From positions 27,577-91,576 of the forward strand of contig JALNYL010000002.1 in NCBI GenBank assembly GCA_023229865.1: a DNA stretch of 64,000 bases, written 5' to 3'. The translations under genes were made by a program, and so were the position numbers. A model generated the notes under the pieces. That model made no database searches. It saw only the letters and a program-made list of their open reading frames with translations, and was not told where the DNA came from. This stretch comes from Minisyncoccota bacterium (GTDB taxonomy: Bacteria; Patescibacteriota; Minisyncoccia; Phycocordibacterales; UBA1550). Shown here piece after piece: positions 28,923 through 50,143 of the stretch (position 1 is its first letter; each line of letters starts with the position of its first letter).

Positions 28923-29705
28923 ATGATTCAAGCAAAAAAATCTCTCGGGCAAAACTTCCTCAACTCTAAAACAGTTGCGCGTGATATCGTGCGCGCAGCA
29001 TACCTCTCATCGTCTGACACCGTGCTTGAGATTGGTCCAGGGAAGGGGTTCCTCACATCAGAGCTTCTCGCATCGGGAGCGCATGTCATCGCTGTTGAAA
29101 AAGATGATCGCATGATTCCGCTTCTCTCGGAAAAATTTGCGGAGGAAATTGTGCAAAAAAAGTTTACTCTCATTCATGGGGATGTTCTCGAGGAGCTTGA
29201 GAAAAAAACTATTTCGCTTCCTGCTCAGTACAAACTTGTTGCAAATATTCCTTACTACCTTACCGGGCAAATCATTCGTACATTTCTTGAAGCAAAAAAC
29301 AAACCAATACAAATGGTTCTTATGGTTCAAAAAGAAGTAGCGACCCGCATCGTCGCACGCGACAAAAAAGAAAGCATTCTCTCAATCGCCGTAAAAGCCT
29401 TTGGCGACCCAAAGCTCATCAAAAAAGTTCCTGCGCGTTATTTCACCCCTGCACCAAAAGTAGACTCTGCAGTACTCTCTATTGAAAACATATCTGGGAA
29501 AAACTTCCCCACAAAAAAATCAGAGGAAAGATTTTTTGAAATCGTCCGCACTGGATTCGCACACAAAAGAAAAGTTCTCTCAGGAAACCTGAAAGAACTT
29601 TTTAGCGATGAAACTATCGAGATTCTTGCTTCTGCAAACATTAAAGACAAGACCCGCGCAGAAAATCTTGTTCTCAAGGACTGGCTCACGCTTTCAAAAA
29701 GCTAA
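28923..29705 (+). CDS. rsmA: 16S rRNA (adenine1518/1519-N6)-dimethyltransferase RsmA/KsgA
   Basis: LGQNFLNS..VLEIGPGKGFLT SAM-binding motif. NIPYY catalytic motif. Confidence 0.85.
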   Translation: MIQAKKSLGQNFLNSKTVARDIVRAAYLSSSDTVLEIGPGKGFLTSELLASGAHVIAVEKDDRMIPLLSEKFAEEIVQKKFTLIHGDVLEELEKKTISLPAQYKLVANIPYYLTGQIIRTFLEAKNKPIQMVLMVQKEVATRIVARDKKESILSIAVKAFGDPKLIKKVPARYFTPAPKVDSAVLSIENISGKNFPTKKSEERFFEIVRTGFAHKRKVLSGNLKELFSDETIEILASANIKDKTRAENLVLKDWLTLSKS

Positions 29706-31238: not shown

Positions 31239-33284
31239 TTGGGTATGGACTTACAAAATTTTTTACAAGATGAAAGAAAGAAGAAGATTTTAATTATTAG
31301 CGGAATTGTATTGTTTGTTGTTTTAGGTTCAATTTTTATTTTTAGTCGAAATAATCCTGCCCCCGTGGACACGACAGGAGATGGACAAACTCAGCTTTTG
31401 GACGACCTCGCAGGGATTGCACCAAGAGATGGGGTTGCTCAGGACCAAAATCGTCTCGTCGCACCACTTGTTAAGGTTTCAGCGGATGTCCCCGTCGTTG
31501 CCCCAGGACAGCCTTCTGTGATTTCTTGGAATGCAACCAACGCGACAAGCTGTGTCGACGGCAGTGGTAATGCTATCCGCACAAGTGGTAGTCTCTCTAT
31601 CACTCCTACAGAAAACTACACCATGGATGTGGTTTGCACCAACCCAAAGGGTACAACCATTGAGTCTATTACGGTTGCTGTTACAACGACACCCATCATT
31701 ACCCTCAGCGCATCTCCCGAATCAGTTCTTGCAGGAGAGCAATCTTTCATCTCGTGGAACACCGTCAACACCACTCGCTGCACCGACAGTGCAGGAAAAA
31801 CACTTCGTTTGAGCGGCGGTATGCCCGTTGTGATTTCAAAGCCTTACACCTTTGAAATTAACTGTTCTGGCCCAAATGGCACCGACAAGAAATCGATAAC
31901 GGTGGGAATTTCTACGGTAAAGACCACTGAAAGCGAGCTTAAATATGTCTGGGTATTTAAATCAAAAGCAACGGCGACAAGCGCCTCAAAAACGTCCACG
32001 TTCCAGACAAGCGCTGGCTGCCAATCTGCATATGAAAATTCGACCGCATACTCAAAAACAGCTTGTACAAAGGTTCCCGTTGGCACAGCTGGGTCGACCA
32101 CAGTAAACGATAGCAACTCCGGAGGAACAGTAGGAGGAGAAGAGATTCTTGTCTGTATCACCCTCAACCAAACCCTTGAGCTAAACTCAACGGACGCCAA
32201 CGCAAACGGCGAAGTAACGGTTCTCCAGAAATTCCTTAATCGCAAAGGGTTCTTGAGTGCCGCACCATCAGGAAATTTTGGAAGTCTCACCGAAGACGCG
32301 GTTAAGCAATTCCAGATTTCTGAGGGGATCCCTGCAACTGGCAAAGTTGACGCAGAAACAAAAGTTAAAATCAAAAGCGTAAGCTGTGCAGACGCCGAAG
32401 CCGCGGCAAAAAAACTCGCGGACGAAATTAACGCAGGGAAAAAAGAAAATGAAACTACAACCGTAGGAGAAGGAACTCTTGGCCCAAAAATTAAACTCAC
32501 AATGTCTCCTGACACCATTGGTTTTGGACAGACAGCAGTGCTCACCTGGGAAATTGCTGACGCAGTGAGCTGTATTGTAAAACCGCTAGGAGGCAGCGCA
32601 ATTGCTGTTGTCGCCGGGAAAACGAGAGTTCTCGAAGAAGGGAAAGCATTTGCGATTCCTGACGACACAGGATTTTCTGGATCATATAGCCTGAAATTGA
32701 ACGGGGCAGATCTTAGTGTTAAGTTTGAATTTAAATGTAGTGGAGCTGGAATCACCGCAACCAACCAGAAAACTCTTTATTGGGATACGGCATCTGCTTC
32801 TTTTACAGAAGCAGCAACAATAGACGATCTTGAAGCAAGTCCTACAGCCATCGCAGAAGCTGCAATAGGAGCAGAATCCGAAGTAAGTTGGACCGCCTAC
32901 AACGCAACGAGTTGTAAAGTTAGTGGCGATGCTTACACAAGAATCCTCACCGATAGTGGCGAGTGGAAATCTCTTAAGGGCCTTGCTTCAGCAGCACCAA
33001 CAACAGGAGTAGTGCGTATTAAGCCAGGATTTGAAGGTTCTCAGGTGCCATACCACTCAGAGCAGGTCACTACAACATGTCCACCATATAGTGGTGACGG
33101 AGGAGATTACTGTATTCCAACAACAAGCACCGTGACATCAGGTGACGGCGCGCGTAAGGGCAACGAGACAGCAGTGGTTACGGTCTCATGTACGGGACCT
33201 ATTAAACCAGATCCAAAACCAAAGTCTGTGGCGATAACCATTACTCCAACCCCTCCTCCTTCTGGCGGTGGTGGAGGTTGGTAA
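31239..33284 (+). CDS. Large cell-surface protein with repeated Ig-like domains and a central peptidoglycan-binding domain
   Basis: TM anchor near the N-terminus. At least three repeats of SxISWNxxNATxC..G. PG-binding-like GEVTVLQKFLNRKGF..EDAVKQFQISEGIPATGKVD. C-terminal PPPSGGGGGW. Terminator at 33298-33338. Confidence 0.55.
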   Translation: MGMDLQNFLQDERKKKILIISGIVLFVVLGSIFIFSRNNPAPVDTTGDGQTQLLDDLAGIAPRDGVAQDQNRLVAPLVKVSADVPVVAPGQPSVISWNATNATSCVDGSGNAIRTSGSLSITPTENYTMDVVCTNPKGTTIESITVAVTTTPIITLSASPESVLAGEQSFISWNTVNTTRCTDSAGKTLRLSGGMPVVISKPYTFEINCSGPNGTDKKSITVGISTVKTTESELKYVWVFKSKATATSASKTSTFQTSAGCQSAYENSTAYSKTACTKVPVGTAGSTTVNDSNSGGTVGGEEILVCITLNQTLELNSTDANANGEVTVLQKFLNRKGFLSAAPSGNFGSLTEDAVKQFQISEGIPATGKVDAETKVKIKSVSCADAEAAAKKLADEINAGKKENETTTVGEGTLGPKIKLTMSPDTIGFGQTAVLTWEIADAVSCIVKPLGGSAIAVVAGKTRVLEEGKAFAIPDDTGFSGSYSLKLNGADLSVKFEFKCSGAGITATNQKTLYWDTASASFTEAATIDDLEASPTAIAEAAIGAESEVSWTAYNATSCKVSGDAYTRILTDSGEWKSLKGLASAAPTTGVVRIKPGFEGSQVPYHSEQVTTTCPPYSGDGGDYCIPTTSTVTSGDGARKGNETAVVTVSCTGPIKPDPKPKSVAITITPTPPPSGGGGGW

Positions 33285-36358: not shown

Positions 36359-38548
36359 ATGCATAATCTCTTCCCAAAACTTACAGCAATTCTCTTCGGG
36401 GCTGTTTTCTTGCTGGGAGGGGCGTCGATGGCGGGAGCTCAAGAGGCTTCCGTTATCTACTTTTATAAATTCAAAACAAACTCCGCAGAGAGCACTCCTT
36501 TCCAGTTTAAAGATTTTTCCACAGCAGCAGATTGTAATACCTCTCGAAGCACTGCCCCAACCTACGGACTATCCCCTTGTGTAGGGACCACAGTCGCGGG
36601 ACTTAACGCATTAAAACAAGCCGAGCAACAAAGAATGTCGTCTCTTGAAGCACGCGCTCGAAGTGCTGAAGAGAACGCTCTTTTTAAGAAGCTCAATTGT
36701 AACCCTGTTGGATCAATCATTGGGGGAGTTTTTGGTGGCGAAGGAACTCTTGCTGAGTGTGTCCCTGTTGTTACTTATTATGTAATCTACAAACCTGCCT
36801 CATGGCTCCTTATAGGTTCTGGTTTTATTTTTGACGCGATGCTTACATTGAGTATCGATAGCTCGTTTGTTAATCAAGAGTTTGTAGTAAGCACATGGAG
36901 TGTGGTGCGTGATTTCTCAAACATGCTCTTCATCTTCATCCTCCTTTATACAGGAGTGCAAACAGTCCTGGGAATAGGGAATTGGAGAAAGACAGTGCTT
37001 ATGGTCATCGTGATGGCACTCCTTATCAACTTCAGCCTCTTCTTTACTAAGGTTGTTATCGATGCGGGTAATGTGCTTGCGGTGGGAATATACAACAGCA
37101 TGGGAACTGAAAAGCCAACTGAGTTTCAGAGCTTTCAGAGCCCAGGGAAGGTCCACGAGCGTGACATTTCAGGTAGCCTTGCGGGGGCATTCCACCCAGA
37201 AAAATTCTTAAAGGTCTCAGGTGATGTCGATGCTCTTGATGCCACTATCGTATTCCTCATCGCAGCAATCGTCAGCGGTTACGCAGGATACATCTTTTTT
37301 AAAGCAGCACTCCTTTTTATTGGGCGTCTCGTAGCCTTTTGGTTCTTAATGATTGTCTCTCCGTTTGCATTTATTTCTATTGCCCTCCCCGCGGGAGCAA
37401 ACAAGTTCCAATCATGGCTTGACGAGCTGATTAGCCAAGCATTTATGGCGCCCGTATTCCTCTTCCTTATTTACCTCATTATGAAAGTCATTAGTGCGGG
37501 AGACGGCATCCTTGGGGCTCTTGTAAAACAGTCTGGCTCGAGCGTGGGAGCGTTTACTTTTGACAAAGTTCTTGCGCCCGTGATTATCGCCGCGATTCTT
37601 ATGTTCGCCCTTGAGCAAGCTTTTGGGTTTGCTAAAAAAATGTCAGGTGCCTTTGGTGAGTTTGGCTCAAGTCTCGGCGGGGCAGTAATGGGAATTGCAG
37701 GAGCAGGTCTTGTAGGGGGAGCAGCACGAGCTGGTCGCGTAGCTATTGGGGGGACAGCGCAGAGAATTTTGGATAGTGATAGACTTCAGGGCTTAGCGGC
37801 AAGTAAAAACACTTGGGCGCGCGCAACAGGAATCACCACCCTCGCACAAGGAGGAGTTCTTGCTGCAAACAAAGCAAAAGATGCTACTTACGATGTTCGC
37901 AATATCGGCGGAGCTATTGGAAAGGGAATCGGGACACTTGGAATGGGTAAGGGCGGGAAACTAAACTACGAAAAAGAAGAGGAGGCTTTTGTAAAAGAGC
38001 AGAAAAAACGCGCCGCAATGTTTGAGGTTGGTTCAGGGGCTGCACAAAAGGTCACCGTAGAAAAAACAAAAGAAACAGTCAAAGAAACTAAAGAGACTGT
38101 TAAAGAGCTCAAGGAGGTGAGAACGAAGGCGTCCGAAGAACTCAAGAAGGCAACCACAAAAGACACTGAGATGCGTAGCTCGGGGACATTTGACGAGGGG
38201 GTAAAGAGGGTTCTCGACGAGGCGAAGAGAAAGGACAAAGAAGCACAAGAGAGGCTTGAAGAGGCAGAGAAGAAAGCAGTTGAGGCAGAGCTTGCCGAAA
38301 AAGAAGCTTCCAAGGTTCTCAACACTGAGGATGAGCGCCGTCGAGGAGTACAGGGGAAGCAGGCTGCATTCTTCCATAAGCCATTCTCATCAGAAGAGAG
38401 AAAGAAGATTCGCGCAAAGATTCGCGAAGGAAAAACTTCAAAAGAAAAGGATGATGAAGACATAGCAAAAACACTCAAAAAGCTTGCGGAAAAGCTTCCA
38501 AAGGACGAAAAGGAGAAGGAAGAAAAGAAGGAAACTAGCGGACACTAA
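36359..38548 (+). CDS. VirB6/TrbL-like polytopic membrane protein with long charged coiled-coil C-terminus
   Basis: 729 aa. Signal peptide, ~130-aa periplasmic region, then 5-6 TM helices with large hydrophobic blocks (MLFIFILLYTGVQTVLGIG.., IVFLIAAIVSGYAGYIFFKAALLFIG..). C-terminal ~200 aa is K/E-rich coiled coil. Confidence 0.45.
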   Translation: MHNLFPKLTAILFGAVFLLGGASMAGAQEASVIYFYKFKTNSAESTPFQFKDFSTAADCNTSRSTAPTYGLSPCVGTTVAGLNALKQAEQQRMSSLEARARSAEENALFKKLNCNPVGSIIGGVFGGEGTLAECVPVVTYYVIYKPASWLLIGSGFIFDAMLTLSIDSSFVNQEFVVSTWSVVRDFSNMLFIFILLYTGVQTVLGIGNWRKTVLMVIVMALLINFSLFFTKVVIDAGNVLAVGIYNSMGTEKPTEFQSFQSPGKVHERDISGSLAGAFHPEKFLKVSGDVDALDATIVFLIAAIVSGYAGYIFFKAALLFIGRLVAFWFLMIVSPFAFISIALPAGANKFQSWLDELISQAFMAPVFLFLIYLIMKVISAGDGILGALVKQSGSSVGAFTFDKVLAPVIIAAILMFALEQAFGFAKKMSGAFGEFGSSLGGAVMGIAGAGLVGGAARAGRVAIGGTAQRILDSDRLQGLAASKNTWARATGITTLAQGGVLAANKAKDATYDVRNIGGAIGKGIGTLGMGKGGKLNYEKEEEAFVKEQKKRAAMFEVGSGAAQKVTVEKTKETVKETKETVKELKEVRTKASEELKKATTKDTEMRSSGTFDEGVKRVLDEAKRKDKEAQERLEEAEKKAVEAELAEKEASKVLNTEDERRRGVQGKQAAFFHKPFSSEERKKIRAKIREGKTSKEKDDEDIAKTLKKLAEKLPKDEKEKEEKKETSGH

Positions 38549-39444: not shown

Positions 39445-40197
39445 TTACTTCGCCGGAGATACAGCCGGAACGCCAGAAGCGGCGGCTGCATTCAGCTTGT
39501 CCATTGCGGGCACGAGCTTATTGAAGCCATCGGCGAACTCGGTTGCAATCACTTGCATGGAGATGTTTTTGCTGATCTCCCCCGACAAAACGTCAGGGGT
39601 ATCCACCGCCATGAGTGCAACGCCGAGATTGGTGTCGTCGCTCTTGGCCTGTCCGAGGACAGAAGCAATGGACTCGCCGGTCTCCATATCAACAACAGAC
39701 AGCGTAACCATAGCCTCAGTGAAACGCAGGTCATGCATCCCCCTCGACATTTCTTTTTGGGCGAGGAGTCCACCGAAAAGTGGGATTCGGCGGACGGCGC
39801 CAGCGGTTACAGCATTGTAGCTGTTCCCGATGACGGGTTGTGCCATTTCCATTTTCAGCTTGAATTTAACGCCGGCAGTGCCCGGTTCAACGAGAGTAAA
39901 GCAACCAGCCTGTTTTACCGCGTGACGGACAGTCACATCCACCATCGGGAAAGGGAGGCCGACACGGTTGAACATGAACGACAGCGATTTCGAAGAATTG
40001 TCCTCGAGAACCGCGCGGCCGTAGTTCTTGGCGCACTTGGAGAGCGCCGAAGCTGCTGGCTTCGCTGCTTCGGGAGCGGATGCCGCCGAAGGTGTTGCCG
40101 AGGTGCTGTTCACCAGATCGGTGATGTCAGCAGATGCGGAACCAACGAACAGAACGAACAGAAACAGGATCGAAACGAGATTTTGAATGAACTTCAT
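39445..40197 (-). CDS. Secreted protein (CsgG/LpoB-like fold suspected); GC-rich, opposite strand inside the T4SS-like cluster
   Basis: 250 aa. Clear signal peptide MKFIQNLVSILFLFVLFVGSASA. By eye the gene looks substantially more GC-rich than the window average. The overlapping plus-strand 269-aa ORF is an R/C-rich antisense artefact. Confidence 0.5.
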   Translation of the reverse strand: MKFIQNLVSILFLFVLFVGSASADITDLVNSTSATPSAASAPEAAKPAASALSKCAKNYGRAVLEDNSSKSLSFMFNRVGLPFPMVDVTVRHAVKQAGCFTLVEPGTAGVKFKLKMEMAQPVIGNSYNAVTAGAVRRIPLFGGLLAQKEMSRGMHDLRFTEAMVTLSVVDMETGESIASVLGQAKSDDTNLGVALMAVDTPDVLSGEISKNISMQVIATEFADGFNKLVPAMDKLNAAAASGVPAVSPAK

Positions 40198-40367: not shown

Positions 40368-40829
40368 ATGCAATTTCACATCCCCCAGTACATCGATATC
40401 GAGGACAAGCTCTTTGGTCCACTTACTCTTAAGCAGGCGATTTATTTAGCTGGTGGCGCAGGTGGTATTTATTTGTTCTACCGCATTATCCCCTATATGT
40501 TTATCAAAGCGCCAATTATTTTGGCGATTGCGGTCCTCACGTGGGCACTCGCATTTTTCCCAAAAGAAAAACTAGGGAAACCATTTATCGATGTTCTTGA
40601 AGCAGCCTTTGCTTATATGCTCAAGGACAAGCTCTACACGTGGAAAAAAACAACGAAAGAGGCTGGTGCAAAAAAAGAAGAAGACTTTTTACCTTCTGTT
40701 CCAATAGCGACCCCTTCGGTCTCTGTGGGGAAACTCTCTAGCGCTTCGTTTGATCTCGACGTTCGCGGAGCCCAAAAAGGAGTGGAGGAACAAGACAAAA
40801 CGGGGAAAGATAGTGATATACTAAAGTAA
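40368..40829 (+). CDS. PrgI/VirB3-like small membrane protein
   Basis: 153 aa. DKLFGPLTLKQAIYLAGGAGGIYLFY resembles the PrgI-family fGpLTxrQ signature, followed by two TM helices. Confidence 0.45.
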   Translation: MQFHIPQYIDIEDKLFGPLTLKQAIYLAGGAGGIYLFYRIIPYMFIKAPIILAIAVLTWALAFFPKEKLGKPFIDVLEAAFAYMLKDKLYTWKKTTKEAGAKKEEDFLPSVPIATPSVSVGKLSSASFDLDVRGAQKGVEEQDKTGKDSDILK

Positions 40830-40833
40830 TACC

Positions 40834-41487
40834 ATGGCAGTTAAATCAAAAGCAGCACAAGATTTTGTTCCCATTAAAGAAATCCGCGACGGTGTCGTGA
40901 TTTTAAAAGACGGAACCATCCGTATGCTTCTTATGGCATCTTCGGTCAACCTCGCCCTCAAGTCTTCAGATGAGCAACAGGCGGTTTTGATGCAGTTCCA
41001 AAGTTTTTTGAACTCCCTAGAATTTTCAACTCAGGTATTTATCCAATCACGCCGTCTCGACATTCGCCCCTACCTTATTCTTCTTGAAGAGCGCCTCCAT
41101 GAGGAAGTCAACGATCTTCTTAAAATTCAGATTCGCGAATATATGGGCTTCGTAAAAACCATTGCTCAGTCCACCAATATTATGAGCAAGCTCTTTATTA
41201 TTGTTGTTCCTTACGCGCCACCAAAATCAGTTACGAGCTCTTCGTCATCAAGTGGGGGATTTAGCCTCTTTGGAGGGAAGAAGGACACAAGCAGCACTCC
41301 ATCGCAAAGCGCCGTCGAGGCTTTTGAGGAGGCACGCACACAGCTCGAGCAGCGCGCAGGTATTATCAGTCAAGGGCTCGCGCGCACGGGGGTTCGCGTG
41401 GTTCCCCTTGGTACTGAGGAGCTCACCGAGCTTTACTATCGCCTATTCAACCCAGGAGAGGTAGAGAAGAAGGTCGACGTAAGATAA
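40834..41487 (+). CDS. VirB4/TrbE-family ATPase, N-terminal domain fragment (separate ORF)
   Basis: 217 aa. AQDFVPIKEIRDGVVILKDGTIRMLLMASSVNL is the characteristic N-terminus of Gram-positive-type VirB4/TcpF/PrgJ ATPases. It ends 14 nt before, and in a different frame from, the ATPase ORF. Confidence 0.6.
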   Translation: MAVKSKAAQDFVPIKEIRDGVVILKDGTIRMLLMASSVNLALKSSDEQQAVLMQFQSFLNSLEFSTQVFIQSRRLDIRPYLILLEERLHEEVNDLLKIQIREYMGFVKTIAQSTNIMSKLFIIVVPYAPPKSVTSSSSSSGGFSLFGGKKDTSSTPSQSAVEAFEEARTQLEQRAGIISQGLARTGVRVVPLGTEELTELYYRLFNPGEVEKKVDVR

Positions 41488-41500
41488 CAAAACTATTTTT

Positions 41501-43342
41501 ATGATTAATTTTTTTGGAAACAAACAACCAACAACTACAGAGGCAGAAAAAAATTCTGTCCCCGTACTCCCTCAAGACCTTTACGCTGATACAGGCCTCA
41601 ACCTCGCTGATGTTATTGCTCCTTCTGCCGTAAAAATAGAATCCAAAGAACTCATCCTGGGAGAAAAGGTTGTGCGCTCATTTTTCATCACCTCATATCC
41701 AAGCGTTGTCACCGACAACTGGCTTTCTCCGCTCATCAACCTCGACAAAGTTTTTGATATTGCGATTTATATCCACCCTGTCGACACAGCAGACATAATG
41801 AAGAAGTTTGAAAAGAAGGTTGCTGAGGTTCAAAGCCAGATCAATGTCCGCGAAAGTAAGGGTTTTGTCCGTGACCCAATGCTCGAGTCAGCATATCGCG
41901 ATCTCGAAGAGCTTCGTGATCGTCTCCAGCAAGCGCAGGAAAAAATGTTTGACGTAGGACTTTATATAACCCTTTACGCTGACAGTGAGGAGGAGCTCAA
42001 TCATGCCGAAGCAGAGATCAAGTCAATGCTCGAGTCACGTCTTATCTACATTCGCCCAGCACTCTTTCAACAAGAAGAAGCTTTTCAAAGTATTATTCCG
42101 GTCAACAGTGACAAGATCGCGGTCACAAAAAAGATTAACTCGGAGCCACTCTCGAGCTTCTTCCCGTTTGTGTCATTCGACCTCACATCAGACAAAGGGA
42201 TTCTCTATGGTATCAACCGTCACAACTCTTCGCTTGTTCTCTTCGACCGCTTCTCTCTCGAGAACTACAATTCGGTTACTTTTGCGAAGTCTGGTTCTGG
42301 TAAATCATTTGCAACAAAGCTCGAAATTTTGCGTAGTTTGATGTTTGATATCGATGTCATCGTTATCGACCCAGAGCGTGAATATGAGTCAATGGCCGAA
42401 GCAGTGGGTGGCCGTTATTTCAATATTTCTCTCAACTCCGAACACCACATCAACCCATTTGACCTTCCTGTTCCTCGCGAAGATGAATCTCCTGCGGATG
42501 TTCTTCGTGCAAACATCATTTCTCTTGTTGGACTCTTCCGTATCATGCTTTCAGGACTCAGCCCGGAGGAGGATGCTATCGTCGACCGCGCGATCTCAGA
42601 AACATACGCACTTAAAGACATTACTCCTGACTCAGACTTCTCTGCGATAGAGCCACCACTTCTCTCTGACTTTGAAATGGTGCTTTCAGGAATGGAGGGA
42701 GCAGAAGGTATTCTTACTAAGCTCACCAAATACACCCGCGGATCATGGGCAGGATTCATCAATAATCCTTCAAACGTCGACATCAACCGTAAATTCATCG
42801 TCTTCTCAGTGCGCGACATGGAAGACGACTTGAAGCCTGTGGCAATGTACCTCGTGACACACTTTATTTGGAACGCAGTGCGTCGCACACTCAGAAAGCG
42901 TCTCCTTGTGGTGGATGAGGCTTGGTGGATGATGAAGTCCGAAGACACGGCCGCCTTCCTCTATGCGCTCGCAAAACGTGGCCGTAAATACTACCTCGGA
43001 ATCGCGACGATCACCCAGGACGTAAACGACTTCTTGAAATCCCCATACGGCTTGCCAATTATGACCAACTCGTCAATTCAGATTCTTCTTAAGCAGTCGC
43101 CGACATCAATCGATGCCGTCCAAAAAGCTTTCAACCTTACTGACGAGGAGAAATTCTTGCTTCTTGAGTCAGGAGTAGGGGAGGGCATCTTCTTTGCCGG
43201 AATGAAGCACGTGGCTATCCGTTCTATTGCTTCCTACACCGAGGAACAAATCATCACCTCAGACCCAGGGCAGATCCTCGCTATCAAAAAAGCAAAGCGC
43301 GAACTCGCGGAAGCAGAAGCATCAGGAGGGGGAAGTATCTAA
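41501..43342 (+). CDS. VirB4/TrbE/CagE-family type IV secretion ATPase (ATPase domain)
   Basis: 613 aa. Walker A FAKSGSGKSF. Walker B LLVVDEAWWM. C-terminal GIATITQDV..TNSSIQILLKQS motif block typical of VirB4. Confidence 0.8.
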   Translation: MINFFGNKQPTTTEAEKNSVPVLPQDLYADTGLNLADVIAPSAVKIESKELILGEKVVRSFFITSYPSVVTDNWLSPLINLDKVFDIAIYIHPVDTADIMKKFEKKVAEVQSQINVRESKGFVRDPMLESAYRDLEELRDRLQQAQEKMFDVGLYITLYADSEEELNHAEAEIKSMLESRLIYIRPALFQQEEAFQSIIPVNSDKIAVTKKINSEPLSSFFPFVSFDLTSDKGILYGINRHNSSLVLFDRFSLENYNSVTFAKSGSGKSFATKLEILRSLMFDIDVIVIDPEREYESMAEAVGGRYFNISLNSEHHINPFDLPVPREDESPADVLRANIISLVGLFRIMLSGLSPEEDAIVDRAISETYALKDITPDSDFSAIEPPLLSDFEMVLSGMEGAEGILTKLTKYTRGSWAGFINNPSNVDINRKFIVFSVRDMEDDLKPVAMYLVTHFIWNAVRRTLRKRLLVVDEAWWMMKSEDTAAFLYALAKRGRKYYLGIATITQDVNDFLKSPYGLPIMTNSSIQILLKQSPTSIDAVQKAFNLTDEEKFLLLESGVGEGIFFAGMKHVAIRSIASYTEEQIITSDPGQILAIKKAKRELAEAEASGGGSI

Positions 43343-44537: not shown

Positions 44538-45557
44538 ATGAAAAAATACTTTTTACCAGCGGTCGTCTCTTTCTTTCTCCTCTTTTCAGTAGGGGTGCTC
44601 TCTGCGTACGCTCAAGTAGAGGCAAACTACACCCCCCTCGCCCCCCTGCCAGGAACAACAATTCAGAGTGGTGACGGAGCTGGCACAACAAACATCTCAA
44701 CGTACGTTGCAGGAATGATCAAGCTCCTTGTTGCTCTCGGAGCGGCGCTTGCCGTCCTCTTTGCGATTATTGGTGGGACGCAGTATGTCGCCGCAAGTAT
44801 CAACCCCGCAGCAAAGGCTGGAGCACTTGAGCGCATCCAAAACTCTCTTGTTGGCTTGGCAATTATTCTCTCTTCGTATCTTGTTTTAAACTCTATCAAC
44901 CCAGACTTAGTAAACTTTAAACTTGAACTTCCCCCTGTTACGGTACGACATGAGGTAAATGTTACCGCAGGAGGTTCAACAATAGATGATGCTGGGTGCC
45001 CCACCATCACCACCCCTTCTGTTCTTTTAAATTCGACAGAGTCTCAACAACTAGAATCTGGAGCAACGGTTGTTTTCACGGCAAGCGATGCAACTGCAGA
45101 CGTACAGGCCAACCTACAAACACTGCAAGGGGAATCAAATAAACTAATCCTTGCCCTCCCACAACTTAACTCTGGGATAAAGGCCACCGTTACCTCTGCA
45201 TACCGCCCATATGTATATCAAAAACATTTGTATGAAATATATGACACATGGGTCAAAAAAGATCTAAAAAACAACACCAACCCGGCCTGCGCCGCAAACA
45301 AAACCTTCGTTGGGGCCGAATCAACAAAACACTTTGGCCCTAATGGTCCCGGACTCGTTGCGAACCCAGACGGACAAATCGCTCCTCACACAAAAGGCAC
45401 AGGGATCGATATTAAATTAGAGGGGATTGAGTATGGGAATTTTACGGCTTATGGGTACGCTGATATTAACGATTTTATGGTCCACAACGGTATTTATCTC
45501 AGCTGGCAAGGTCTCCAGAATGACAAGGTTCACTTTAACTTGAGAAGTAGGCCATAA
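44538..45557 (+). CDS. Putative VirB2/TrbC-like pilin-domain protein with C-terminal extension
   Basis: Signal peptide then two hydrophobic helices separated by a short loop (MIKLLVALGAALAVLFAIIGGTQYV / LVGLAIILSSYLVLNSINP), as in T4SS pilins. Followed by a ~200-aa soluble domain. Confidence 0.3.
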   Translation: MKKYFLPAVVSFFLLFSVGVLSAYAQVEANYTPLAPLPGTTIQSGDGAGTTNISTYVAGMIKLLVALGAALAVLFAIIGGTQYVAASINPAAKAGALERIQNSLVGLAIILSSYLVLNSINPDLVNFKLELPPVTVRHEVNVTAGGSTIDDAGCPTITTPSVLLNSTESQQLESGATVVFTASDATADVQANLQTLQGESNKLILALPQLNSGIKATVTSAYRPYVYQKHLYEIYDTWVKKDLKNNTNPACAANKTFVGAESTKHFGPNGPGLVANPDGQIAPHTKGTGIDIKLEGIEYGNFTAYGYADINDFMVHNGIYLSWQGLQNDKVHFNLRSRP

Positions 45558-48002: not shown

Positions 48003-48374
48003 CTATTTGAGCAGATTGGCTGTTTTAAACGCTTTTTCCATCTCTGCTTTAAGGTTTTGGAAGGTTTCTTTCTTTGCTTCTATTTTTGGATAGATAACAA
48101 CAGTTGTGGAACCTTCAATTTGCTTTAAAATAGGGGCTACGAGGTCATAAAAGCGCCTGCGGAGAGTATTTCTGTCTACTGCTGTCTTGGCTGTCTTTTT
48201 TGAAACAACAACAGAAACACGGCTTATTTCTGACTCTTTTCCTCCCTTTTTATAGAAAACAGCGGTAAAAAGCTTTTTGTCTACGTCCGAAACGCGCTTC
48301 TGGGAAAGCGGAAATCCCTTCACGTTCTGTGAAGGGAATTCTTTTCTAGATATACGGTTCTTACGGGGAAGCAT
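48003..48374 (-). CDS. rnpA: Ribonuclease P protein component
   Basis: 123 aa. Basic protein with KNRISRKEF and RNTLRRRFYD RnpA motifs. Confidence 0.85.
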   Translation of the reverse strand: MLPRKNRISRKEFPSQNVKGFPLSQKRVSDVDKKLFTAVFYKKGGKESEISRVSVVVSKKTAKTAVDRNTLRRRFYDLVAPILKQIEGSTTVVIYPKIEAKKETFQNLKAEMEKAFKTANLLK

Positions 48375-48784: not shown

Positions 48785-50143
48785 ATGCAAAACAACGCAC
48801 AACTCTGGGAAAAAGCTCTTTTTGCACTCGAAGGTGAGCTTTCTCGCGCAAACTTCAGCACGTGGTTCAAAAACACCGCCATCATCAAGCAAGATGATGG
48901 GACGATCGTTATTGGTGTTCCTAATGAGTTTGTAAAGGACTGGCTCCAGAACAAATTTCACAAAACAATTCTTCATTCTCTTCGCAATCTTTCGGAGAAC
49001 GTGCGTGCGGTTGAATATTCTGTGTGCAAAATAGAGGAACCAAAAACAGAAAAGAAGTCTGTTGAAGCTCCAAAGTCCGCTCCTGTAGCAGAGCTTCCTC
49101 TTTCAAATCTTTATGTAAACAGAGAGGACGGATTAAATCCTCGCTATACTTTTGATGATTTTATTATTGGTGCGTTTAACGAACTCGCCTACGCAGCATC
49201 TCAGGCTATTCTTAAAAAAGTGGGGACCAACGTTTACAACCCTCTCTTTATCTATGGAAATACCGGGCTCGGCAAAACACACCTCATTCAAGCAATCGGT
49301 AATGAGGTAAAGAAACACTATCCTAATAAACGCGTGTTTTACACGACGTCTGAAAAATTTTCTGTTGACTACATCAACTCAGTAGGGCAGGGGTCAAAAG
49401 CTATGGCGGCATTTAAAAACAAGTACCGCGTGTATGATCTTTTGATTATGGATGACATTCAATTTTTGTCGAACAAAGAAAAAACTCAGGAAGAGCTTTT
49501 CCATATTTTTAATGAGCTCTATCACAACAATAAGCAGATTATTTTCTCATCTGATAAACACCCTAATTACATCCCAGCTCTTGAGTCACGTCTCAAGTCT
49601 CGTTTTAGTGCGGGAATGATTGTTGATGTTCAGGAACCAGAATATGAATCACGCCTCGCTATTCTTCGTGCGAAAGCAGAGACACAAAAGTTTTTCCCTC
49701 CTCAAGAAATTATTGAGTATCTCGCTTCTTCCGTTCAGGGAAACATTCGTGAACTCGAAGGACTTTTGAATGGCATCGTTTGTCAGTCAGAACTTAAAAA
49801 CAGAAATCTCACCCTTAATGAGATAAAACCTTTTATCAAAAATACCTCAAAGCCTAAAAAACTCTTGTCAGTAAAGGAGATTGTAAAGGTTATTTCTGAT
49901 TTCTATAACATTGAAGAATCTTTCGTCTATGATAAAACGAGACGAAAGGAGGTTTTGAAGCCTCGACAAATTGCGATGTTTATTCTTCGCGAAGACTTCA
50001 ATATCTCATACCCAACAATAGGACAGAAGCTCGGTGGGCGAGATCATACCACCGTGATGCACTCCTGTGAGAAAGTGAAAGAGGATATTAAAAATGATCT
50101 CTCTCTTATGCAGGAAGTGGATCAGATACGCGCAATGTTTTAA
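48785..50143 (+). CDS. dnaA: Chromosomal replication initiator protein DnaA
   Basis: 452 aa. AAA+ Walker A GNTGLGKTHLIQAIGN. Sensor/box motifs. C-terminal DNA-binding domain GQKLGGRDHTTVMHSCEKV. Confidence 0.95.
   Translation: MQNNAQLWEKALFALEGELSRANFSTWFKNTAIIKQDDGTIVIGVPNEFVKDWLQNKFHKTILHSLRNLSENVRAVEYSVCKIEEPKTEKKSVEAPKSAPVAELPLSNLYVNREDGLNPRYTFDDFIIGAFNELAYAASQAILKKVGTNVYNPLFIYGNTGLGKTHLIQAIGNEVKKHYPNKRVFYTTSEKFSVDYINSVGQGSKAMAAFKNKYRVYDLLIMDDIQFLSNKEKTQEELFHIFNELYHNNKQIIFSSDKHPNYIPALESRLKSRFSAGMIVDVQEPEYESRLAILRAKAETQKFFPPQEIIEYLASSVQGNIRELEGLLNGIVCQSELKNRNLTLNEIKPFIKNTSKPKKLLSVKEIVKVISDFYNIEESFVYDKTRRKEVLKPRQIAMFILREDFNISYPTIGQKLGGRDHTTVMHSCEKVKEDIKNDLSLMQEVDQIRAMF

Follow-up and report, generated by a model that had tools for sequence, protein, structure and literature searches.

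The locus analysed here has its closest described counterparts in the chromosomal, MPF_FATA-related type IV secretion systems (T4SSs) of Patescibacteria (candidate phyla radiation, CPR) and in plasmids of the pGO1 type. It lies in a 64,000-nucleotide (nt) stretch of DNA from a Minisyncoccota bacterium (assembly GCA_023229865.1, contig JALNYL010000002.1, positions 27,577 to 91,576, forward strand), hereafter the window, in which the T4SS ATPase VirB4 is represented by two open reading frames (ORFs). Such a layout has a published precedent. According to Quinonero-Coronel et al. 2025 (PMC12102498), TrsD is remotely homologous to the N-terminus of VirB4 and, in Patescibacteria, exceeds every other T4SS component in abundance; 2,272 homologues were counted there, 1,664 of them adjoining virB4, with Gracilibacteria as an exception in which TrsD is unlinked to virB4. 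TrsD is otherwise reported only in the pGO1 subclass, and the VirB4 proteins of Patescibacteria form a monophyletic clade nested in MPF_FATA. In most Patescibacteria classes, the T4SS is often found near dnaA, dnaN, rnpA, and ksgA. The TrsD homologue is listed as essential in Candidatus (Ca.) Southlakia epibionticum, and other T4SS genes are also reported as essential for the epibiotic growth of this cultivated relative.

In the passages of that paper covered by our search, in which the words "split" and "truncated" do not occur, we found no statement that the adjacent VirB4 lacks exactly the TrsD segment, nor one on rare re-fusions. The homology between TrsD and the VirB4 N-terminus is cited here from this source because TrsD is not named in the main text of Guglielmini et al. 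2014 (PMC4027160); a paper on the pELF plasmid (PMC13492992) proved irrelevant, its TraD being a VirD4-like protein. In the structures of plasmid R388, as reviewed in 2025 (PMC12857230), the N-terminal domains of VirB4 link each dimer's protomers, are embedded in the membrane, and touch both VirB3 (inner ring) and VirB8 (outer ring).

We consider it very probable that the two ORFs are real genes that are transcribed together and belong to the chromosomal T4SS of a Paceibacteria-type Patescibacterium, where the order is prgI (virB3-like), trsD-like, virB4; that their split is ancient and selected; and that the TrsD-like protein would complete VirB4 in trans.

Two open reading frames and their junction

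The two ORFs and the spacer that separates them are located as follows.

40834..41487, forward strand: ORF1, trsD-like gene, 217 amino acids (aa), MAVKSKAAQDFVPIKEIRDGVVILKDGTIRML..., stop codon TAA at 41485-41487
41488..41500: spacer between the ORF1 stop and the ORF2 ATG, 13 nt, A/T-rich, caaaactattttt
41501..43342, forward strand: ORF2, virB4 ATPase gene, 613 aa, own ATG start, +1 frame relative to ORF1

The coordinates bear out the initial annotation of this DNA, which had described ORFs of 217 and 613 aa (830 aa in sum) in different frames; the separate downstream ORF is also upheld, whereas the spacer, given there as 14 nt, is 13 nt long. Public databases assign the identical proteins to two distinct genes in a Candidatus Pacebacteria metagenome-assembled genome (MAG), under the names "hypothetical protein M0P64_01175" (ORF1) and "DUF87 domain-containing protein" (ORF2).

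As a whole protein, ORF2 belongs to the CD1110 family of VirB4 in NCBIfam (NF045971; 372.9 bits, cutoff 325). Its residues 28-572 align to positions 180-733 of the 752 in the model, and positions 1-179 are not on the ORF2 polypeptide, the N-terminus of which is therefore incomplete. Matches to Pfam comprise P-loop_TraG (1.1e-25; 90.6 bits, cutoff 25.8), AAA_10, DUF87, and CagE_TrbE_VirB. Residues 231-586 match the crystallised C-terminal domain of VirB4 (4AG5) at 3.3e-42, and the ATPase domain matches residues 446-741 of TrwK at 2.6e-6. Both Walker A (KSGSGKS) and Walker B (LLVVDEAW) lie within the ORF2 translation, as had been proposed. Residues 129-204 match the last 80 positions of CagE_TrbE_VirB, which is a family of the N-terminal domain. 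Judging from these matches, ORF2 is a VirB4-type ATPase that lacks the TrsD-equivalent N-terminus and retains the distal portion of the N-terminal domain along with the C-terminal domain, which bears Walker A/B.

Residues 9-123 of ORF1 match positions 2-118 of the same CD1110-type model, and the protein also matches positions 101-220 of a mycoplasma VirB4 model and the TrsD/TraD family (NF041427), all three NCBIfam matches being far under the curated cutoffs. Because its score against NF041427 is 28.5 bits, below the cutoff of 200 required for membership in the subfamily, we call it TrsD-like; it is a remote homologue that stands outside the staphylococcal/enterococcal subfamily as NCBI defines it. 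Among 92 diverse members of the ORF1 family, 91 match the mycoplasma VirB4 model, 65 match CD1110 VirB4, and 78 match TrsD/TraD at E<1e-3, with best E-values of 7e-15 and 8.5e-13, the latter for NF041427. When the profile of these 92 sequences was compared by hhalign with TrsD of the Staphylococcus capitis plasmid pTZ24, the two aligned end to end (175 columns, 81% probability, E 1.2e-5), that is, with full-length homology to a bona fide TrsD; a shallow alignment of ORF1 relatives matched staphylococcal TrsD weakly (49 columns, E 0.0036). Neither profile gave a significant hhalign match to the N-terminus of the fused Lactococcus CD1110 VirB4, and so the link between ORF1 and single-chain VirB4 is drawn from the NCBIfam hidden Markov model matches, the fused homologues of Patescibacteria, and fold matches. 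Indeed, the top structural match of the AlphaFold2 model of ORF1 (mean predicted local distance difference test score, pLDDT, 74.5) is TrwK/VirB4 of plasmid R388 (cryo-EM structures 7O41-7O43, 8RTB, and 8RTD). The model has a disordered loop at residues 137-153, where the sequence (at approx. 137-153) is a variable Ser/Gly-rich loop. A precomputed database annotation assigns PF26593, "TraC-like", to the 100%-identical protein P0001 and to all 120 close homologues; our local Pfam scan of ORF1 gave no match to PF26593, a model possibly absent from that copy. Two further Pfam matches of ORF1, Post_transc_reg and Herpes_UL92, are under cutoff and were rejected as noise.

Taken together, the matches indicate that ORF1 is homologous to approximately the first 180 positions of VirB4, i.e., the part missing from ORF2. 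The initial annotation had taken ORF1 for the VirB4 N-terminal domain. The homology stands, but ORF1 does not amount to the whole domain: since ORF1 covers only positions 2-118 of the model and ORF2 still matches the end of CagE_TrbE_VirB, the cut falls inside the classical N-terminal domain and not where this domain meets the C-terminal one.

Two adjoining ORFs in different frames could in principle be joined by a programmed +1 ribosomal frameshift or by stop-codon bypass, which would yield a single VirB4 of approx. 835 aa. A TAA at 41480-82 closes the ORF2 frame, and both frames are jointly open only over 5 nt (41483-41487), such that a shift is geometrically possible only at GTA AGA TAA C (41479-41488). 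Inspection of the junction, around which a search for a slippery heptamer had been suggested, revealed no slippery motif, either in this 5-nt stretch or in the 13-nt spacer. The spacer also holds no Shine-Dalgarno (SD) sequence ahead of ORF2. This is uninformative, because an SD-like motif is present at only approx. 4 of the 33 gene starts checked across the window; the missing SD was thus rejected as an argument against independent initiation, and the organism evidently relies on SD-independent initiation. Leaders at the 33 gene starts are A/T-rich.

Conservation of the two-gene arrangement among relatives

The same locus was taken from 80 species-level genomes (Paceibacteria, Yonathbacteria, Nomurabacteria, Taylorbacteria, Adlerbacteria, and others). 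These are independent assemblies from many projects and technologies, one of them a complete genome (CP174359.1, L061); figures for the junction refer to 81 genomes, i.e., the 80 relatives and the window. In all 80 relatives, a stop codon ends the TrsD-like ORF and a separate ATG opens the ATPase ORF, and with such recurrence the two-ORF arrangement is far beyond chance. The TrsD-like ORF is 198-227 aa long and ends with TAA in 68 genomes, TAG in 12, and TGA in one; reassignment of UGA (code 25) was therefore rejected, the stop in the window being TAA.

The frame offset between the two ORFs is 0, +1, or +2 in 25, 31, and 25 genomes, respectively, and all three offsets are found among relatives that are 87-91% identical in ORF1. 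In the 25 same-frame genomes, the stop codon of ORF1 is still present in frame between the two genes. The spacer ranges from 1 to 565 nt, with a median of 9, and in at least four relatives it contains a complete gene for a 23S_rRNA_IVP / four-helix-bundle (bAvd-like) protein of 118-131 aa, which is partly present in a fifth (L040). The four spacers with the complete gene are the following.

L032, 4637..5047: trsD-virB4 spacer holding the inserted gene
L056, 4616..5047: trsD-virB4 spacer holding the inserted gene
L060, 4616..5099: trsD-virB4 spacer holding the inserted gene
L079, 3177..3646: trsD-virB4 spacer holding the inserted gene

Because the inserted sequences are divergent between relatives, the insertions appear to be independent of each other.

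The variation in frame relation and spacer implies that the two genes are translated separately, each from its own ATG. Within this context, little is left of a programmed frameshift. The 5-nt stretch open in both frames and the existence of natural fused homologues (see below) can be cited in its favour; however, ORF2 starts with an ATG of its own both in the window and in all relatives, the offsets differ even among close relatives, the ORF1 stop remains in frame where no shift would be needed, and some spacers, which reach 565 nt, hold another gene. Neither a slippery site in the overlap nor a frame relation conserved among orthologues was found, and this mechanism is effectively refuted.

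A single-base sequencing or assembly indel that split one gene in this MAG can likewise be set aside. Nothing speaks for it beyond the metagenome-assembly origin of the window, whereas the same two-gene structure is present in 80 independent assemblies, including the complete genome, and all close homologues show split sizes: the closest 120 homologues of ORF1 (74-100% identity) are all 208-222 aa long and the closest 120 homologues of ORF2 are all 541-626 aa, with none near 830 aa. We regard this explanation as refuted.

No point favours recent pseudogenisation, in which a broken VirB4 gene would be decaying. The ratio of nonsynonymous to synonymous substitution rates (dN/dS), calculated pairwise against 13 relatives and with synonymous sites saturated, is 0.03-0.075 for ORF1 and 0.015-0.04 for ORF2, values that lie far under 1 in either case. 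Both reading frames are intact and their motifs conserved, the split can be followed to below 40% identity, and the reported essentiality of a TrsD homologue and other T4SS genes in a cultivated relative (PMC12102498) is hardly compatible with decay; this reading, too, is refuted.

Thus, the conserved stop-plus-restart, the random frames, and the low dN/dS exclude assembly error, programmed frameshift, and recent pseudogenisation, and among the four readings offered by the initial annotation only a genuine split gene survives. The split is old, with both pieces under selection. Either an ancient gene fission or the inheritance of a pGO1-like split state parted the first approx. 180 residues of VirB4 from the rest, and the comparisons indicate that selection has kept both pieces since then.

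The surroundings of the pair are also conserved: 79 of the 80 related loci have a prgI homologue upstream of their TrsD-like gene, and the order prgI-trsD-virB4 is held in 79 of the 80 relatives. The VirB4 of L028 is normal (603 aa). Median identity across the loci is 57% for TrsD vs. 73% for VirB4. In three relatives, virB4 carries an insertion of approx. 650 aa exactly in the Walker A motif (GSGK, then the insertion S...HN, then S-YATK; L043 4652..8446, L079 from 3647, and L040 from 2193). In L043, this insertion matches the Pfam Intein_splicing domain and the LAGLIDADG_3 homing endonuclease; virB4 of the window has no intein.

Fused and long homologues

When 1.84 billion cluster representatives were searched exhaustively with HMMER, 2,161 relatives of ORF1 were found, the best 150 of which (representatives of 50%-identity clusters, with 36-66% identity) were examined. 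Among these, 111 are no longer than 260 aa, 37 are 261-500 aa long, and only two, P0318 (797 aa) and P0355 (898 aa), are fused to an ATPase; the stand-alone form of approx. 200-260 aa is retained down to 36% identity. The question raised at the outset, i.e., whether orthologues are split in all cases or fused, can thus be answered: the gene is split in 80 of 80 relatives and fused in 2 of the best 150 of the 2,161 ORF1 relatives.

The concatenated ORF1 and ORF2 align with P0318 in one high-scoring segment pair (1-812 to 1-791, 48% identity), in agreement with the proposal that together they equal a full-length monoderm-type VirB4. At the P0318 locus, a PrgI gene is present upstream and yidC/rnpA/dnaA/dnaN adjoin. 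P0355, in which an approx. 80-aa low-complexity linker rich in Pro/Ala/Gln/Thr joins the TrsD and ATPase parts, was found on 5 contigs originating from at least 3 samples, also with PrgI upstream. Both proteins are genuine TrsD-VirB4 fusions, colinear with ORF1 plus ORF2. A rough neighbour-joining tree built on the TrsD domain, which lacks bootstrap and is indicative only, places them separately among stand-alone proteins, which suggests that they are independent secondary fusions. Gene fusions are classic "Rosetta stone" evidence that two pieces work together.

Proposed role of the TrsD-like protein

Given the colinearity and the fusions, we propose that the 24-kDa TrsD-like protein may bind the 70-kDa ATPase non-covalently to form a complete VirB4 protomer. 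The small protein would supply the membrane- and VirB3-proximal N-terminal module, which in the solved diderm T4SSs connects the VirB4 protomers with each other and docks them onto VirB3/VirB8, and the resulting unit would correspond to a full-length VirB4 located at the translocon base. The tight spacing of the operon (4 nt from the end of prgI to the start of ORF1 and 13 nt from ORF1 to ORF2) could lead to coupled, equimolar, and co-localised synthesis, given that SD sites are hardly used by this organism.

Several points weigh against this proposal. Complementation in trans is inferred from colinearity and the rare fusions. The profile built from the shallow alignment of ORF1 relatives matched nothing among the PDB sequences, even at E 10. 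About a quarter of the examined TrsD representatives (the 37 of 150 mentioned above) are longer than the stand-alone form, and the three long proteins that were read (P0283, P0303, and P0332) consist of the same domain followed by a low-complexity, Pro/Ala/Gln/Thr-rich C-terminal tail of 50-250 residues, which hints at roles beyond completing VirB4. In addition, TrsD is given without an assigned function in PMC12102498.

It is therefore worth considering that the TrsD-like protein originated as the VirB4 N-terminus but now performs a separate function, for instance as an adaptor, a chaperone of assembly, or a regulator whose stoichiometry is independent, and is not simply the missing module. 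The long, tailed representatives would fit such a role, as would the unlinked TrsD reported for Gracilibacteria (PMC12102498) and the TrsD of the pGO1 system, which likewise has no assigned function; TrsD also evolves faster than VirB4, with lower median identity and higher dN/dS. However, TrsD corresponds to the part that VirB4 lacks, independent re-fusions have been tolerated, and the position between the virB3-like gene and virB4 is near-universal, all of which makes an independent function unlikely. A related and equally doubtful idea is that the faster-evolving separate N-terminal subunit tunes stoichiometry or regulates docking of the ATPase on the VirB3/VirB6 translocon, both in Patescibacteria and in pGO1-type plasmids. 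Put differently, the subunit might be a detachable factor for the assembly or gating of a T4SS essential to the epibiotic lifestyle, in which case the fission would be non-neutral. The subunit has a greater length in many lineages, of which the examples read have low-complexity tails; we consider this reading improbable to the same degree. Completion of VirB4 in trans remains the preferred explanation. Since the TrsD piece is the piece that VirB4 lacks, re-fusions occur, albeit rarely, and the pair can accommodate unrelated genes in between, an "N-terminal module in trans" is a directly testable hypothesis.

Genomic neighbourhood

The remaining genes of the T4SS block and the conserved genes around it are listed below.

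28923..29705: KsgA
36359..38548, forward strand: 729-aa ORF, upstream, conserved in the locus
40368..40829, forward strand: prgI / virB3-like small membrane protein gene, 153 aa
43413..44534, forward strand: downstream conserved ORF, approx. 373 aa from the Met preceding the signal peptide
44538..45557, forward strand: pilin-like (VirB2-like) protein with a C-terminal extension, 339 aa
47001..47729, reverse strand: YidC
48003..48374, reverse strand: RnpA
48785..50143, forward strand: DnaA
50400..51500, forward strand: DnaN

The prgI product matches Pfam PrgI (PF12666) at E 3e-9 (37.7 bits, cutoff 27). The 729-aa ORF has homologues in 64 of the 80 related loci within the available flank and no match in Pfam or NCBIfam; from hydrophobic stretches read by eye in its translation, it is a candidate for a VirB6-like channel subunit. 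Homologues of the ORF directly downstream of virB4 are also present in 64 of the 80 loci, again with no family match in Pfam or NCBIfam. The 339-aa protein shows weak pilin matches over residues approx. 50-120, both under cutoff (T4SS_pilin, PF18895, 24.1 bits, cutoff 26.6; NF045849, Mbov_0395 pilin-like, 19.6 bits), followed by an extension of approx. 200 aa without a family match; its homologues occur in only 23 of the 80 loci. Because yidC, rnpA, dnaA, and dnaN are located directly downstream of the T4SS block, the locus presumably lies at the replication origin.

Two further ORFs of the region should be mentioned.

31239..33284, forward strand: 681-aa ORF with a PG_binding_1 peptidoglycan-binding domain (5.5e-15)
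39445..40197, reverse strand: 250-aa ORF with a signal peptide

The former, a few genes upstream of the T4SS genes, is a possible candidate for cell-wall remodelling (a VirB1-like role). The latter is encoded on the opposite strand amid the T4SS genes, has an AGGAG SD sequence, which is rare in the window, and a GC content of 0.54-0.55 vs. 0.42-0.48 around it. No homologue is present at that place in any of the 80 related loci, and the protein has no match in Pfam or NCBIfam; the ORF has the appearance of foreign DNA inserted into the T4SS block.

Comparison with known systems

The two-gene arrangement is the standard, published TrsD plus VirB4 organisation of Patescibacteria and pGO1-type plasmids and, as such, is already known, although the initial annotation did not recognise it. 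For annotation, the two genes should be kept as trsD-like and virB4, and they should be neither merged, flagged as a frameshifted pseudogene, nor labelled as an assembly error. What is added here is a demonstration that the segment equivalent to TrsD is precisely what the adjacent VirB4 lacks, together with the randomised frame relation, the genes inserted between the halves, and the rare natural re-fusions.

Compared with the single-chain VirB4 of monoderm systems (CD1110 family, PrgJ-type), the window has two polypeptides instead of one, and the family model is spanned by ORF1 (positions 2-118) and ORF2 (positions 180-733 of 752). In the Lactococcus plasmid pSD96_03, for example, PrgI is followed by a fused, single CD1110-family VirB4 of 740 aa; PrgI is directly upstream in the window too. 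TrwK/VirB4 of R388 belongs to a diderm system, is a single chain of 823 aa, and shows 13-16% identity.

The layout of the window is that of the Staphylococcus capitis plasmid pTZ24 (pGO1/pSK41 type), in which trsA, a CagC-family gene, and a small hypothetical gene are followed by trsD (227 aa) and, after 20 nt, by a 670-aa DUF87/VirB4 gene; both have a small gene, a trsD of approx. 200-230 aa, and a short virB4. The small upstream gene of pTZ24 is annotated only as hypothetical, and its position suggests that it may be virB3-like. Nonetheless, the TrsD/TraD and TrsE/TraE proteins of pGO1/pSK41-type (and pIP501-type) systems are very distant in sequence from those of the window (approx. 20% identity), and the staphylococcal system is plasmid-borne and conjugative, whereas that of Patescibacteria is chromosomal and reported to be needed for epibiotic growth (PMC12102498, PMC12857230).

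The closest counterpart is the chromosomal, MPF_FATA-related T4SS of Patescibacteria itself (PMC12102498; Wang et al. 2023 for Ca. Southlakia epibionticum). The window comes from the same phylum, its close homologues being found in MAGs of Paceibacteria, Yonathbacteria, and Parcubacteria, and it contains the same PrgI/VirB3-TrsD-VirB4 triad at the same place, by yidC-rnpA, dnaA-dnaN, and ksgA, with a VirB2-like pilin gene nearby. It thus agrees with the description of the locus in PMC12102498 (adjacent VirB4, TrsD, and PrgI/VirB3, with a pilin-like gene near and dnaA/dnaN/rnpA/ksgA close), and there is no substantive difference between them: the locus is an ordinary example of the T4SS of Patescibacteria reported as essential for the epibiotic growth of a cultivated relative.

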